A DNA stretch of 64,000 nt from Haliotis asinina. Lineage: Eukaryota. The DNA lies in contig NC_090280.1 in assembly GCF_037392515.1 (NCBI RefSeq), positions 54,301,037 to 54,365,036 on the forward strand. The letters run 5' to 3'. Positions 1,251 through 55,250 of the stretch are shown piece after piece; positions within the stretch are counted from its first letter, which is position 1, and each line of letters begins with the position of its first letter. A program made the translations under genes and the position numbers. The notes below the pieces were generated by a model. It worked only from the letters and a program-made list of their open reading frames with translations. It did not search any database and was not told where the DNA came from.

Positions 1251-3565
1251 ATAATTATGTGCAAGTGGATTATATAGGATTACGTGCGACCTAGAATGCC
1301 AGTTCCGATTAGAAATAGGGCCATGAAGATTTGGCTGTTTTAAGTGGACGTAGCAATGTCTGTATAGTGTTAGGTGTGTGTTTGTGTCCAGTGAACTCAG
1401 GACCATCATTCCGTGAAGTTTCTTGTGTGTGCAGTATAGTTGGACGTTCGGACGTTTCTGTCCCTACACATGATCTTTTGTCGAGAAAAATCCTTTTAGT
1501 TTCATTACTTCAGTCTATCAAACCGTTCCCTTTACAGTTCTACCTTCATTGGACCCTCCCATGTCTCAGCTCGGTTGGTCTCCCTTGCCCCCTCTACTGT
1601 GCTATCTGTGTATCCTGTACCAACGAGGGCAAGACAACGGGACAGTGGGAGATTTCTGAACATGGGCGACGGTATAAGGTAAAGCACTCTCACCTGGTCA
1701 GAATCCTCCCACGACCTCGCACTCTTGATTCCAGCTACAAGTTAGGCCTTCAAACATCTGCAACCTGTCCTCTCAGAGAAATGCGGCGACCAAACAAATT
1801 CTCTTAAAAGCGAACAAAGGTACTCGAAAGAGCCAATCAGACAGTATTAGGGTTCACTATAACAGCAGGAAAAGTGATTCAAGTGTTTCCCCTTTGTATT
1901 ACTGACAAACCGGACGGCAATAGTGACGAATAGATGTCATTGGATATGTAAATAGCACAAACCAGGAAGCAAGTCGGAAACTATTTTATACAAAGCAGAC
2001 GACTTAGTATTACGATACCCATTTATTTTAACGAAGAGGCACTTAGAGTTTGTTTTCTGAAAACGTCTTCTAACTGTCGAACTCCATTAGCGTTTGCGAG
2101 TGACCCTCTTGAGTATCAGTATGAAGCATTCCTCCGACACCAAAAATGCAAATCATGGCAGTGTCGGAAACAGGTCAAAAGGGCCAAAACTGCAAGAGTC
2201 AAAAGGGCCAAAGGGGAAGTCAAAAGGACCATAGATTAAAGCCAAAAGGGCTTAAGTTTAAGAAAATGGTAAGATTAGAAGAAATTCATTCCATGTTGTT
2301 GCAGTAGTTCTAATCCTATACATCTCAGAGTGGTTAAATGTTTATTTTATAAGTACAGTCAACCATGCAAATGTTTGTTTAATGACTACAGGTTTTACCA
2401 CAGTCACTGTGACAATAAACACTATTCAATAATTCAAACACGATTAACGATTTAATTAGATGTAAATGGTCTCATGACTCAGAATGTTGTAGAAAACAAG
2501 CAGTTCAACCACAATTCAGACTGGTAACCATACGTTTAAACTGAGTTGTTTATGACAAGACACTTAGGACGAACCAACATGCCCTCGAGTGGAACAGTTC
2601 TCAGAGATGGGCCCATCGTAGCTGTGACACCAACATGACCAGAGACCCTTGTCCTTTGGCCCTTTAGATTCTAACCCGGTAACAGACATCAAGACATTAC
2701 CTCGGGCAAGAATATAATTCGTGATATTGCAGGAATTCTCTGAAATGTGTATGCTACAACCTCCCGCAGTACGTGGCCGACACTACACGGCGGGTGTTTC
2801 AAACGGAAACCGTTTGTAAAAATGTGTTAGGTATTAAAGGCTGTTCATGGCCGGAGCTGATCGTGGTCGTGTTAGGTCGTCATCACTCGCCCCTTTCCGC
2901 AACCTGCAAGAAGACGCATTCCCCTATCAACGAAACAGTTGTGCGAAACCAAGATTGTAGTATGATTTCCAGTACTTTGGGCAAGGAATCCTTCAGAATA
3001 GTTTTCATATACGTTGTTGTATCTAGAATTCTATTATGACTTTAGTGAATACTGAATTGTGATTGGTTGACTAAGGTCATTGACAGGTATGTAATCATGT
3101 TAAAAAGGTCTATATTTTCAGTGCGCAATAATACATAGTTTACGGTAATTTACGTACGGTTTACTATAATTCAGTTTGCTTGCCAACATGGTGGTCACCA
3201 AACAAAATACCGATATACACATGTCTTTGAAAATGGATTCAGCGATGGTGATCTCGACACATTAATTGAGTAAATCGCAGAAATGTGTGATAATACAAGT
3301 ACAATTACATCACACGCACGGAAAAACAAATATTCAGCCGACAAGATCAAAACATCGTCTTTCTTTCGAGTTCAGCAAGCAGAATATGTTGCATATTCAT
3401 GCAATGTTATACCAAAATGACTGAACGATACTTTCTTACACGAGTTCCACATTAAATTCATCATGAGACTTCGTTGACATACTTAAATTAAATTTAAAGG
3501 TATTATAATGCCGTTATAATACCTATAATTTAAAAACAGCGTGCTAGTATGTTTTCTCTTTAATA

Positions 3566-7139: not shown

Positions 7140-7237
7140 GTGGGTGACTCGGGTGTGGTCGGATGGGGGCGGGAGCCGTGGGTGGCCAGCAACAGCAAGG
7201 GACAATTGTAACCAATCAGGAGATCTTGTCAAAAACC
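7140..7237 (+). promoter_or_regulatory. Putative core promoter of the RNF34/RFFL-like gene (GC box plus CCAAT box)
   Basis: gggggcggg at 7165-7173 and ccaat at 7212-7216 lie about 25-70 bp upstream of the ATG at 7238 (caaaaaccATGg). G-rich, CpG-containing. Confidence 0.4.
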
Positions 7238-7285
7238 ATGGCATGTGAGTCATGTGCTACGGAGTTCACAATCTTCAAACGGAAG
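7238..7285 (+). CDS. RNF34: RNF34/RFFL-family E3 ubiquitin ligase, coding exon 1 (MACESCATEFTIFKRK; start of the FYVE-like finger)
   Basis: ATG in A..ATGG context. Matches C-x2-C ..F.VFRKK of human RNF34/RFFL. Donor AAG|gtatgt at 7286. Confidence 0.6.
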
Positions 7286-8070
7286 GTATGTACACATTGT
7301 GTTTAAAGAACAACTGTGTGGTTATTTGACATACATTCAAACTATATAAAAATCTGTAAATAATCGAATCTGCACCTGACAATCCAGTGATTGACATCAT
7401 GACCAGTACTCTTCACAATTTGGATTGAGCGTGAACCCAGATGAAGATATCATACAGAAACTTGAAGGCCTTATGGTGCCAGTTAAGTTGGAACATTCCT
7501 CATAATTTATGTGTGACAAGAACAAAACTGTTAAACATAGTTTCTACTTAAATTTCAAACTGCACATTACCACCTGGTGTTGCTCTCAATTAGAAAGACA
7601 GAAACATAAACTCAGGTATTTCTTTTATTCAATGTAAATAATATAAATTAGAAATGATGTCTTGAAAGTTTCTCATTCTTGGCATATTCGCCTTTATCAA
7701 GATTTAACACTGATGACCTGACAAGATTCTTACATGTATGCTCTGTGTTCTTTCCAAAAGCTCAAGTAACCATATCTTAACTATTTTTTGAGCTGTAAGA
7801 ATTAATTTCTTTATGAACATTATTAAATACATGTATAAACAAACATGACACCTATCAACATCTAAGATGAACATGGTCATGCAAATAAATGTTACAGTAA
7901 ACTAGTTATAGGAAGCTCAAAGGGATCACTAGTTTTATTTGTCATATCTGAAGCTCATTATTGGTGCGTCTTCATAGTTTATATGATTGTTTGAACATCT
8001 TTGTGGAAGTTCATGAGTCAAAATTGAAGCATGCAACTGTATTGATGACAACGTCTTGTGTATTGCATCT

Positions 8071-8305
8071 ATTTGGTCAACGAAGATACTTGTACCATTA
8101 TTTGGTCAACGAAGATACTTGTACCATTATTTGGTCAACGAAGATACTTGTACCATTATTTGGTCAACGAAGATACTTGCACCATTATTTGGTCAACGAA
8201 GATACTTGTACCATTATTTGGTCAACGAAGATACTTGTACCATTGTTTGGTCAACGAAGATACTTGTACCATTATTTGGTCAGCGAAGATACTTGCACCA
8301 TTATT
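8071..8305. repeat. 29-bp minisatellite, about 8 copies (atttggtcaacgaagatacttgtaccatt), in intron 1 of the RNF34-like gene
   Basis: Direct reading. The ORFs at 7961-8378 in the track are artefacts of this array. Confidence 0.9.
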
Positions 8306-9163: not shown

Positions 9164-9457
9164 AAAATGTGCAGAGATTGTAAACGTCAATTTTGCTCAA
9201 CTTGTCTGCCAAAAGAAGCAAATAAACGTGATAGACAATGTGAAAAGTGCCGAATTATTGTCTCTGGGAACTTTAGCCGCCAAATCTTGCAAGAGTGGAG
9301 GGTCAAGGACATGCGATGCTTCCTTGACAGCCACAACATTCCAACCAATATGTGCCGTGAAAAACATGACCTCATTGACCTTGTGATACTCCACTACAGC
9401 CGAGGATCTGTCTCAAACTCAGAGGTTGAGCATGAGAGACTGGTACAGCAGTTGGTG
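9164..9457 (+). CDS. RNF34: RNF34/RFFL-like exon 2 (KMCRDCKRQFCSTCL...NMCREKHDLIDLVILHY...ERLVQQLV)
   Basis: Acceptor tttttttttcag|AAAATG. Phase 0, 294 nt. Matches human CDCKKDFC..C.LC and TCREKEDLVDLVL. Donor TTGGTG|gtaagt at 9458. Confidence 0.8.
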
Positions 9458-9905
9458 GTAAGTCCTGCTTGTATTGGGTAGAGAAGGTGGGATTTATATC
9501 TGTCAGTCAACTCAGGGAGGCGCAACGTGAGAGACTGGTACAGCAGTTGGTGGTAAGTCCTGCTTGTATTGGGTAGAGAAGGTGGGATTTATATCTGTCA
9601 GTCAACTCAGGGAGGCGCAACGAGTGAGAGACTGGTACAGCAGTTGGTGGTAAGTCCTGCTTGTATTGGGTAGAGATGGAAGGATGTATATCTGTCAATC
9701 ATCGCAAGAAGGCGGAATGTGAGAGACTGGTACAGCAGTTGGTGGTAAGTCCTGCTTGTATTGGGTAGAGATGGAAGGATGTATATCTGTCAATCATCGC
9801 AAGAAGGCGGAATGTGAGAGACTGGTACAGCAGCTGGTGGTAAGTCCTGCTTGTATTGGGTAGAGATGGAAGGATGTATATCTGTCAATCATCTCAGAGA
9901 GGCAG
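9431..9905 (+). repeat. Tandem array of 5 units of about 95 bp. Each unit contains the last 23 nt of exon 2 plus its 5' splice site plus 72 nt of intron
   Basis: gagagactggtacagcagttggtg|gtaagtcctgcttgtattgggtagag... recurs at about 9434, 9529, 9626, 9721 and 9816. Confidence 0.9.
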
Positions 9906-9973: not shown

Positions 9974-10060
9974 GAGCGGATGAGAGAAGACAATGAGTCA
10001 GATGTGCCCCCAACAGATACACAGACAGATGTAGTCATTCCCCCAGAGGAACCCATGCAG
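9974..10060 (+). CDS. RNF34: RNF34/RFFL-like exon 3 (ERMREDNESDVPPTDTQTDVVIPPEEPMQ; acidic linker)
   Basis: Acceptor tttgtttacag|GAG, donor CAG|gtactt. 87 nt, phase 0-0. Confidence 0.65.
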
Positions 10061-11139: not shown

Positions 11140-11341
11140 GACTCACCTGTGTTAAATCAAGTTCCCCGTATGAGGCTTGATAATATTTCATCTGTGGAGG
11201 AGGTTGACACACTGACAGTCAGGCAGTTGAAAGAGGTCCTTGCAAATAACTTTGTGGATTACAAGGGGTGCTGTGAAAAGTCAGAACTCACTGACCGAGT
11301 GAAGCGGCTGTGGAATGAAGAACAGATAAACAGAGACAAAG
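11140..11341 (+). CDS. RNF34: RNF34/RFFL-like exon 4 ([67 protein letters not shown])
   Basis: Acceptor gtattgcag|G, donor AAAG|gtaact. Strong match to human [27 protein letters not shown].RLY. Confidence 0.8.
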
Positions 11342-14102: not shown

Positions 14103-14135
14103 CTGAGAAGATGAGGGAGAATGCAGATAAATTAG
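14103..14135 (+). CDS. RNF34: Candidate 33-nt in-frame micro-exon of the RNF34/RFFL-like gene (AEKMRENADKL)
   Basis: ttcaattttcag|CTGAGAAG...AAATTAG|gtaagt. Phase 1 in and out, so inclusion or skipping both keep the frame. The human linker is of similar length. Confidence 0.45.
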
Positions 14136-14816: not shown

Positions 14817-14832
14817 CCTTCTTCCATTTCAG

Positions 14833-15011
14833 CAGGGACAACGGCCAGCTCGGAGCTGGACCTGTGTAAGATATGCATGGACAATACTATTGACTGTGTT
14901 TTGCTGGAATGTGGTCACATGATCACATGCACCTCCTGCGGCAAGCGTCTTGCTGAATGCCCCATGTGCCGACAGTACGTGGTGCGTGTTGTCCACACGT
15001 TCCGGTCATAG
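14833..15011 (+). CDS. RNF34: RNF34/RFFL-like last coding exon: C3HC4 RING finger ([49 protein letters not shown])
   Basis: Acceptor ccatttcag|CAGGG, stop TAG at 15009-15011. Near-identical to the human RNF34/RFFL C-terminus ([49 protein letters not shown]). Confidence 0.85.
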
Positions 15012-16289: not shown

Positions 16290-17140
16290 GACTTATAGTT
16301 TAGGGGTACTACTACAGATGGGTCAGTTACCTGAGATGAGATATGACTGACTGGGGTGCTACAAGAGATGGAGTGTTACTGACGATAGGGTTATTGCTGA
16401 AGATGGTGGTGTTACTGGATAATGCAGAGCACAGGGGTGCTACAAGAGATGAAGTTTTACTGAAGATAAAGGTATTACTGAAGATGGGGACTTGTTACTG
16501 GGTGTAGGGGTGTAATGAGAGACAGGGTGTTCCTGGAGATAGGAGTTCAAGAGATGGAGTGTTACAGGGTGTAGGGGTGTTATCAGAGACAGGGTGTTAC
16601 AGTATGTTCTAAGAGATAGGGTGTTACTAGGCATGGGGGTGTTATCAGAGACAGGGTGTTACTGGAGATAGGGAGTTCTACGAGATGGGGTGTTACAGGG
16701 AATAAGGGTGTTATGAGAGACTGGGTGTTCCTGGAGATAGGGAGTTCTAGGACATACGGTAGGGTGTTACAGGGCATAGGGGTGTTATCAGAGACAGGGT
16801 ATTCTTGGAGACGGGGAGTTCTAAGAGTTGGGGTGTTACAGGGCGTAGGGTTGTTATGAGAAACATGTGTTAATGAAGATGGGGAGTTACTAGAGATGGG
16901 GAGTTACTAGAGATGGGGAGTTACTAGAGATGGGAAGTTACTAGAGATGGGGAGTTACTAGAGATGGGGAGTTACTAGAGATGGGAAGTTACTAGAGATG
17001 GGGAGTTACTAGAGATGGGGAGTTACTAGAGATGGGGAGTTACTAGAGATGGGGAGTTACTAGAGATGGGAAGTTACTAGAGATGGGGAGTTACTAGAGA
17101 TGGGAAGTTACTAGAGATGGGAAGTTACTAGAGATGCTGA
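16290..17140. repeat. Compound minisatellite: degenerate about 60-bp units (gggtgttac.g..ataggg..) at 16290-16870, then about 15 near-perfect copies of a 17-bp unit (atggggagttactagag) at 16876-17140
   Basis: Direct reading. The ORFs at 16440-16859 are artefacts of this array. Confidence 0.9.
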
Positions 17141-44029: not shown

Positions 44030-44225
44030 ACTCGTCATATGACCCGTGTATCCCCACTTCATTATTCACGTTGTATAAGGTGAGATGAAAGTGGGTGTAA
44101 TGTCACACTTAAAAATATCTCTCTCATATGACCTGTGTATCCCCACTTCATTATTCACGTTGTATAAGGTGAGATGAAAGTGGGTGTAATGTCACACTTA
44201 AGAATATCTCTCTCATATGACGTAT
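44030..44225. repeat. Two tandem copies of a 93-bp unit that contains an internal hairpin
   Basis: tcatatgacc.gtgtatccccacttcattattcacgttgtataaggtgagatgaaagtgggtgtaatgtcacacttaa.aatatctctc occurs twice. Confidence 0.85.
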
Positions 44226-47809: not shown

Positions 47810-48065
47810 CTCGATAACTCAGTGACTCATTGTGTGAAAAATTGGTGACTTGGTGATTCAAAAATTGAAGACTCGGTGACACAAAAATTGGTGACATGGT
47901 GACTCAAAAATTGAAGACTCAGTGACTCAAAAATTTGTGACATGGTGTCTCAAAACTTTGTGACATTGTGACTCAAAAATTTGAGACAAGGTGACTCAAA
48001 AATTTGTGAATTGGTGACTAAAAAATTGCTGACTTGCTGACTTAAATATTGGTGACTCAGTGACT
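47810..48065. repeat. About 19-bp satellite, about 13 copies (ggtgactcaaaaatttgtga and variants)
   Basis: Direct reading. Confidence 0.85.
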
Positions 48066-55124: not shown

Positions 55125-55250
55125 TTAGCTTCTCACAGCGAGAGCCGCGTATTGGGGGTAATAAAAAGCACCTCTTATTCAGCGAGAGCCGCATATTGGG
55201 GGTTATGAAAAGCACCTCTCATTCAGCGAGAGCCGCGTATTGGGGGTTTT
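55125..55250. repeat. About 44-bp tandem repeat, 3 copies (cagcgagagccgcgtattgggggt..aaaagcacctct.att) in ASL intron 5
   Basis: Direct reading. Confidence 0.8.

Follow-up and report, generated by a model that had tools for sequence, protein, structure and literature searches.

The second coding exon of an RNF34-like gene of the abalone Haliotis asinina ends within a tandem array in which the end of the exon and its 5' splice site (donor) stand five times in a row. The array lies in the window analyzed here, 64,000 nucleotides (nt) of contig NC_090280.1, whose own positions are used throughout. Our best explanation, which we hold to be fairly probable, is a minisatellite of the intron that begins with a unit lying across the exon 2/intron 2 boundary, with the upstream donor serving the main mRNA and the array itself likely neutral. 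It belongs to a class already described from several human genes, in which the first minisatellite unit includes an exon-intron boundary and donors are therefore reiterated (Borensztajn et al. 2006; PMC1557585).

Tandem Repeats Finder (TRF) reported the array at 9433–9903 on the forward strand (period 95, 4.9 copies, 94% matches, score 756), and a repeat search gave start-to-start spacings of 95, 95, 97 and 95 for its units (u1–u5, Table 1). Weak periodicity continued leftward into the exon to about 9404 and rightward to about 9915. A 30-nt junction probe, composed of the last 15 nt of the exon and the first 15 nt of the intron, recurred downstream with z = 19 relative to shuffled sequences. 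The array is real and far beyond chance. The head of every unit is TGAGAGACTGGTACAGCAGTTGGTG, the final 25 nt of exon 2, followed by GTAAGTCC. An initial annotation of this DNA had recognized the reiteration of exon end and donor, which TRF and the unit alignment bear out, and had put the exon share of the unit at 23 nt; with the exon ending at 9457, it is 25 nt.

The units fall into two subtypes, type A (u1 = u2) and type B (u3 = u4, and u5 in part), in agreement with the earlier observation that u3–u5 share a variant. The identity of 95–100% given for the units did not hold between the subtypes, which differ at 11 of 95 positions, all within unit positions 53–94, by six transversions and five transitions that are not CpG-driven. 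The array had also been called young, which fits the latest duplications but not the subtypes, as the tail halves of the latter are 26% divergent (11/43 positions). Unit positions 1–52 are invariant across the five units (0/52 between subtypes) except for one T>C in u5, at -6 from the donor, that is synonymous for Leu in the exon frame. The distribution of differences between head and tail gave a Fisher p of 1.4e-5, for a cut picked after the data had been seen. The same T>C (window 9833–9840) makes GCTGGTGG, the E. coli Chi octamer, where units 1–4 carry GTTGGTGG. Chi-like motifs were once linked to minisatellite cores; for u5 the likeness is probably meaningless.

Outside the array, neither the 64-kb window nor 17 related loci contained a match to the unit longer than 12 nt. 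The lack of another copy in the window points to local duplication and not to a dispersed element, and a dispersed repeat or transposon-borne satellite was rejected on these grounds. A coding array or antisense gene was likewise rejected, since all six frames show stops in every unit or merely short open stretches. Rfam at gathering thresholds gave 0 matches over the whole window, and a known RNA family was rejected. No further H. asinina sequence of the locus turned up: an exact 32-nt scan of metagenome contigs gave 0 hits, a protein-pattern scan returned nothing, and an exact look-up of the read-through open reading frame (ORF) returned no record.

The host gene is named RNF34-like in RefSeq. 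Its protein, XP_067668264.1 ('E3 ubiquitin-protein ligase RNF34-like isoform X1 [Haliotis asinina]', 305 aa), shows 100% identity over exon 2; it came up in an exhaustive search of representative proteins and not in word-index searches. The coding sequence was exactly rebuilt from six exons of the window. In Pfam, SAP_RNF34_RFFL (49.8 bits), RNF34L-like_3rd (72.1 bits) and zf-C3HC4_3 (48.7 bits) were all over cut-off, and FYVE (23.8 bits) was slightly under it. The protein thus has the layout of the RNF34/RFFL (CARP) E3 ligase family, with an N-terminal FYVE-like finger, SAP/HeH, an RNF34L-like third domain and a C-terminal C3HC4 RING. Exon 2 carries the SAP_RNF34_RFFL domain, with the FYVE-RING protein SAKURA (PDB 1y02) as its structure match. 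Pfam and the RefSeq name therefore agree with the initial identification of the gene.

The five donors (GT positions in Table 1) share the context GTG/GTAAGTCC, where the slash marks the splice boundary, and are identical from -25 to +27 apart from the T>C in u5, as the description of five near-identical donors had implied. The predicted U1 duplex is the same for all five (7 bp, -9.1 kcal/mol); that of the exon 3 donor is weaker at -7.1. RefSeq isoform X1, a gene model that was exactly rebuilt, uses donor 1, in line with the claim that the first donor gives the productive frame. Direct use of donors 2–5 would add 95, 192, 287 and 382 nt, not multiples of 95 as had been stated, owing to the 97-nt u2. 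Donor 3 would be in frame by length, yet donors 2–5 all meet a TAG seven codons beyond the exon end (VSPACIG, then the stop). The earlier prediction of frameshift or nonsense-mediated decay (NMD) for the later donors hence stands as regards the premature stop and fails as regards the frame of donor 3. Counted from donor 1, intron 2 spans 516 nt; spliced from donor 5 it would have 134 nt, presumably its ancestral length.

Shielding of donors 2–5 by RNA structure was considered and rejected, as the trend in partition-function pairing was the opposite (donor 1 0.96 vs 0.27–0.75 for the others). Single units and the 52-nt head folded no better than shuffled sequences (z -0.6 to +0.75), and the authors of PMC1557585 likewise found no shielding secondary structure. 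The reiterated donors also differ from recursive splice sites (YAG/GTAAGT), each being preceded by GGTG and not by AG.

Table 1. Coding exons of the RNF34-like gene, units of the array and short segments bracketed by splice signals (window positions; a slash marks a splice boundary).
Feature	Position	Strand	Description
Coding exon 1	7163–7285	+	MGAGAV...FTIFKRK; donor AAG/GTATGT; placed by peptide mapping and exact rebuild
Coding exon 2	9164–9457	+	98 codons, phase 0 at both ends, ends ...EVEHERLVQQLV; second half of FYVE-like finger and SAP
Internal 5' splice site	9425–9430	+	GAG/GTTGAG (9424/9425); weak, within exon 2, implied by X2
Unit 1 (u1, type A)	9433–9527	+	Last 25 nt of exon 2, authentic donor (GT 9458), 70 nt of intron
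Mini-exon A1	9520–9552	+	Potential; 33 nt at u1/u2 junction, gggag/GCGCAACG...GTG/gtaagt; open, AQRERLVQQLV
Unit 2 (u2, type A)	9528–9624	+	97 nt, extra AG at 9623–9624; pseudo-donor GT 9553
u2/u3 junction segment	9615–9649	+	35 nt owing to the AG insertion; frame-shifting
Unit 3 (u3, type B)	9625–9719	+	Pseudo-donor GT 9650
Mini-exon B1	9712–9744	+	33 nt, last 8 nt of u3 and head of u4, aagaag/GCGGAATG...GTG/gtaagt; AECERLVQQLV; possible source of X2
Unit 4 (u4, type B)	9720–9814	+	Identical to u3; pseudo-donor GT 9745
Mini-exon B2	9807–9839	+	33 nt, last 8 nt of u4 and head of u5; same peptide as B1; second possible source of X2
Unit 5 (u5, type B head and mid part)	9815–~9909	+	Distinct tail into unique intron; pseudo-donor GT 9840
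Coding exon 3	9974–10060	+	ERMREDNE...EEPMQ; strong acceptor ttgtttgtttacag/
Coding exon 4	11140–11341	+	RNF34L-like third domain
Coding exon 5	14103–14135	+	33 nt
Coding exon 6	14833–15011	+	C3HC4 RING finger and stop codon; acceptor is a CAGCAG tandem

A second RefSeq isoform, X2 (XP_067668268.1, 305 aa), differs from X1 solely by V129A and H131C (...SNSE-AEC-ERLVQQLV...). The peptide AECERLVQQLV is encoded at just two sites in the window, those of mini-exons B1 and B2, and X2 was rebuilt exactly from exon 2a (9164–9424), either of these 33-nt segments, and exon 3. The segment has ...tcatcgcaagaag/GCGG as its acceptor and GTAAGT as its donor, and it substitutes in frame for the homologous last 33 nt of exon 2 (9425–9457), exchanging VEH for AEC. 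This in-frame route had been missed by the initial annotation, which limited the downstream copies to frameshift or NMD products. Both X1 and X2 are Gnomon models.

Open 33-nt segments bracketed by AG and GTAAGT occur at three of the four unit junctions. Together with the last 33 nt of exon 2 they are of equal length and all in phase 0, the exonic one having an internal GT alone on its 5' side, and the spacing from a donor to the next acceptor is 62 nt. Mini-exon A1 is absent from both RefSeq isoforms recovered. The AG/G acceptor of the units is the homolog of the exon's AG/GT internal donor. Translated in the frame of the exon, the tail of type A gives ISVSQLREAQRERLVQQLV, compared with GSVSNSE-VEHERLVQQLV in the exon, which indicates that the weak leftward DNA homology is real and that the duplicated segment once held about 50 nt of exon. 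The splice signals specific to X2 are weak, namely the GTTGAG donor and an AAG/G acceptor with a poor pyrimidine tract. The His of the EH.R.V motif (His131) is kept in 13 of 13 natural sequences aligned; type-B units carry Cys and type-A units Arg in its place.

These features suggest the following course of events. Slippage or unequal exchange would have duplicated a stretch made up of ~50 nt of exon end, the donor and about 40 nt of a formerly ~134-nt intron, and later rounds of amplification of two diverged subtypes may have produced the order A, A, B, B, B'. The resulting pre-mRNA would carry five identical strong donors, of which the most upstream, the sole one directly continuous with the exon, would serve the main mRNA. 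Use of donor 1 in the main mRNA is a fact of the annotation, and we infer it for the cell. Donors 2–5 would be pseudo-sites, with direct use leading to a truncated or NMD-prone product. As each unit would have inherited AG/G from the exon, the unit junctions would come to hold 33-nt AG...GTAAGT segments, homologs of the final 33 nt of the exon, and the minor isoform X2 appears to form by splicing from the weak internal donor at 9425 to one type-B segment and on to exon 3.

We think that X2 is probably a real minor transcript. A possible, rather less likely alternative is that the array is fully silent, donor 1 always being used, and that X2 is an annotation artefact of ambiguous junction reads and a frame-preserving intron (9425–9711) completed by the predictor. 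The 25 nt upstream of donors 1–4 are identical, so junction overhangs of up to 25 nt map equally to them, the weakness of the X2-specific splice sites fits a silent array, and LMNB2 and PDGFA use the authentic donor alone, according to the work cited in PMC1557585. However, the two recovered RefSeq isoforms include a type-B variant and no type-A one, though the type-A segment is just as open and has the same bracketing signals; reads of ambiguous placement should back the two types to the same extent, which speaks against an artefact. Moreover, the eight diagnostic nucleotides GCGGAATG cannot derive from X1 transcripts, and the genome comes with full-length Iso-Seq data from five tissues. X2 itself is best read as tolerated splicing noise made by the duplication.

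The possible products have distinct junction signatures. For X1 the signature is AGCAGTTGGTG/GAGCGGATG with at least 26 nt of left context, and for X2 it is AACTCAGAG/GCGGAATGTGAGAG, also given as CTCAGAG/GCGGAATGTGAGAG. A type-A substitution would give AACTCAGAG/GCGCAACGTGAGAG, and an 11-aa insertion TTGGTG/GCGGAATG or TTGGTG/GCGCAACG. Plain use of a pseudo-donor would show as TTGGTGGTAAGTCC running into exon 3 after a later unit.

That the array is an expansion artefact of the assembly and the true locus single-copy is extremely improbable. The pairs u1 = u2 and u3 = u4 are identical, and the copy number could in principle be off by one. Against this, the H. asinina genome was assembled by hifiasm from PacBio HiFi reads, with Iso-Seq for five tissues (PMC11393055), so the 475-bp array fits within single reads. 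The units carry distinct substitutions and an indel, which makes a stutter artefact unlikely, and the annotated isoform X2 depends on type-B sequence.

Next to the abalone locus we considered homologous exons from other lineages, taken from genomic read-through ORFs or annotated proteins. About 10 other lophotrochozoan lineages have a homologous exon with the same phase-0 end, in most of them followed by one donor, and the junction-probe test showed no array at the exon 2/intron 2 junction in 9 of 10 of them. The Batillaria gene had no DNA on record. One lineage was the exception. In a Logan contig (L001, SRR30870367) from another gastropod-like species, with ~60% protein identity and the EHDRLVGELA motif of caenogastropods such as Batillaria and Pomacea, an independent array at 471–906 repeats the exon end and donor (cttggt..agagctagct/gtgagc) at least seven more times, with a ~57-nt unit and at least eight copies running off the contig (junction-probe z = 10.6). 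Its units are just 65–80% alike, which indicates an older array. A donor of the form GT or GC...GAG is kept in 6 of 7 downstream copies, and among six-column blocks of the unit, conservation peaks at the donor hexamer (0.92–0.94, rank 1–2 of 44). By inspection, this array lacks a comparable in-frame AG...GT architecture.

About 3.2% of the abalone window lies in tandem repeats (period at least 10), which translates into a chance of ~0.27 that at least one array covers a given point among 10 lineages. Recurrence as proof of a hot spot was rejected at this chance level, being notable yet not significant. A third independent array in L007–L009 was not counted (junction-probe z = 1.7). In L007, ~318 nt of extra DNA (704–1021) are inserted 34 nt into the same intron compared with L010, from a closely related species with flanks ~95% identical; loose GTAAGC...TCATCTTATT.TATGG.TAA segments are visible by eye in it, and their repetition is statistically unsupported. 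In L003, an inverted tRNA-like pair (...gctcgctatcaactgagctatacag and ctgtatagctcatttgatagcgagc...) was seen by eye at ~3340–3480, ~1.1 kb downstream of the homologous exon, and may represent a pair of tRNA-derived short interspersed elements.

Based on these data, the array most likely has no adaptive role. We read it as neutral because the unit copies lost the His present in 13/13 aligned sequences, because one junction has a frameshifting AG insertion, and because the internal donor and the AAG/G acceptor are weak. The same points bear on a quite unlikely alternative, in which the array provides functional, selected alternative exon ends and forms a nascent cluster of mutually exclusive exons giving RNF34 variants VEH, AQR and AEC. 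In its support, three open 33-nt AG...GTAAGT segments agree with one another in length and phase and are homologs of the final 33 nt of the exon, and the annotated X2 uses one of them. The unit head differs at 0/52 positions vs 11/43 in the tail, with its sole change synonymous; the 62-nt donor-acceptor spacing could enforce exclusivity; and tandem exon duplication is known to yield mutually exclusive exons (PMC9013439, PMC9741552). On the other hand, the variable coding part of the copies swaps out the conserved His, one junction is frameshifted, the X2-specific signals are weak, the array is missing at this junction in 9/10 other lineages, and the L001 array shows no comparable in-frame architecture by inspection.

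Several observations weigh against the neutral, donor-1 reading favoured here. Uniform neutral decay cannot produce the pattern of invariant head and divergent tail, and the identity of unit positions 1–52 beside 11 differing sites in positions 53–94 is not readily explained by pure neutrality. Pure neutrality also leaves unexplained why conservation in the older, independent array of L001 is highest at the donor hexamer. The rule that the most upstream site wins comes from mammalian cells and not from molluscs, and use of donor 5 would restore the ancestral 134-nt intron, which splicing by intron definition might favour. As for X2, it could in principle stem from multi-mapped junction reads and ab initio completion. 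Candidate causes of the contrast between head and tail are gene conversion that starts from the selected exon copy and is limited to the perfectly matching head, selection acting on the donor block of each unit, and mutagenic repair close to the junctions of the duplication. We see little likelihood that the exon-end/donor block is actively kept by selection, with the units serving as alternative exon ends or U1-binding elements, and that the RNF34 exon 2/intron 2 junction of gastropods is a recurrent site of arrays, in H. asinina and independently in L001. If true, this would make the locus a natural, evolving system of minisatellite-encoded splice choice and not neutral junk.

Conserved donors could also act together as a cluster of U1 small nuclear ribonucleoprotein binding sites that tunes expression or exon 2 splicing, with copy number as a quantitative cis-regulatory allele, as proposed for the 31-bp variable number tandem repeat (VNTR) of CBS. 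Five consensus-strength U1 sites lie within 400 nt, and both independent arrays conserve the donor block preferentially. Lower enzyme activity has reportedly been linked to the CBS VNTR (Lievers et al. 2001, cited in PMC1557585), and variation in human splicing shows a wide association with tandem repeats (PMC10078293). Nevertheless, an authentic donor of this strength needs no help, RNA folding gave no special unit structure (z -0.6 to +0.75), and we regard such a role as doubtful.

Comparison with known boundary-spanning minisatellites supports the assignment of the abalone array to their class. In such arrays the authentic site is used, and the pseudo-sites are functional but silent, or proximal ones are also used (PMC1557585). 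Three defining features of the F7 type are present, with head-to-tail repeats of a ~10–100 bp unit (period 95, 4.9 copies), a first monomer holding the exon-intron junction (exon end 9457, backed by the RefSeq rebuild and the conserved homolog boundary) and a donor reiterated identically in the intron. In F7 intervening sequence 7 (IVS7), a 37 bp unit is present in 5–9 copies, and the first functional site in 5'-to-3' order wins (PMC1557585). The abalone array resembles F7 intron 7 in its boundary-spanning first monomer, in an authentic donor followed by several identical pseudo-donors, in a normal mRNA that, going by the X1 gene model, comes from the most upstream site, and in that pseudo-site use alone would lead to an aberrant product. 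The two differ in unit (37 bp vs 95 nt), exon share (4 bp vs at least 25 nt) and donor strength (weak UGG/gugggu vs near-consensus). Copy-number polymorphism and pseudo-site competence are experimental findings for F7, and no in-frame substitution isoform has been described for F7, unlike the annotated abalone X2.

IFI6 intron 2 and CBS intron 13 are similar in that some downstream copies of the reiterated junction are used in real transcripts beside the authentic donor. IFI6 (6-16) has 25 pseudo-sites, of which the two proximal ones are also used (Turri et al. 1995, as cited in PMC1557585), and CBS IVS13 has 15–20 repeats with two pseudo-sites used (Yang et al. 2000, as cited in PMC1557585). 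In these genes extra isoforms arise by choosing the next one or two donors, whereas simple donor choice in the abalone gene hits a stop; X2 needs an internal donor and an acceptor within the unit, which results in substitution and not extension. LMNB2, with 10–15 repeats of 100 bp (de Stanchina et al. 1997, as cited in PMC1557585), and PDGFA, with 16–18 repeats of 81 bp (Bonthron et al. 1999, as cited in PMC1557585), use the authentic site alone. They are like the abalone locus in unit length, in a repeat that fills most of the intron and, going by the X1 model, in the authentic donor of the main mRNA. They differ in copy number (10–18 vs five), and in the accounts cited there mini-exon usage is unreported.

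Mutually exclusive exons, which are known to arise by tandem exon duplication (PMC9013439, PMC9741552), offer a further comparison. X1 and X2 swap a homologous, equal-length, same-phase segment that was duplicated in tandem, and the two gene models fit the inclusion of one copy per transcript. In contrast to such exons, the first abalone copy is the end of exon 2 and not a separate exon, so that the swap needs an internal donor. Great age, high expression and selection mark the classical cases, whereas the abalone duplicates are young and minisatellite-like and do not show the corresponding conservation, with the conserved His lost, one copy frameshifted and the array missing in 9/10 other lineages.

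The locus is a clean natural, non-vertebrate example of a minisatellite in which a strong 5' splice site recurs in every unit, and it could serve to test in a mollusc whether the most-upstream-donor rule of human F7 holds. It may capture the earliest stage at which a tandem duplication becomes a set of alternative homologous exon segments (X1 vs X2). For annotators, it is a warning that junction reads are ambiguous across such arrays. We expect no change to the understanding of splicing or of RNF34 biology.

Some further features of the gene and its surroundings were recorded. The exon 6 acceptor (14827–14835) is a CAGCAG of the NAGNAG kind; the RefSeq protein requires the upstream AG, and the downstream AG would drop one alanine (KL-A-GTT). 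A second minisatellite of the RNF34-like gene lies in intron 1 at 8070–8305, with a 29-nt unit (TATTTGGTCAACGAAGATACTTGTACCAT), 8.1 copies and 97% matches. Two adjoining 17-nt arrays at 16575–17136 (~31 and ~15 copies, the second with 97% matches) are located ~1.6 kb past the RNF34-like stop, in the 3' untranslated region or in intergenic DNA. The whole window contains no ORF longer than 180 aa. Further minisatellites are at 987–1229 (period 102, with GT runs), 44035–44221 (period 89), 47837–48065 (period 23) and 55136–55248 (period 44), and the share of tandem repeats of period 10 or more was also put at about 3.9% of the window. The GC content of the window is 38.8% and its observed/expected CpG ratio is 0.50, as expected of a methylated invertebrate genome.

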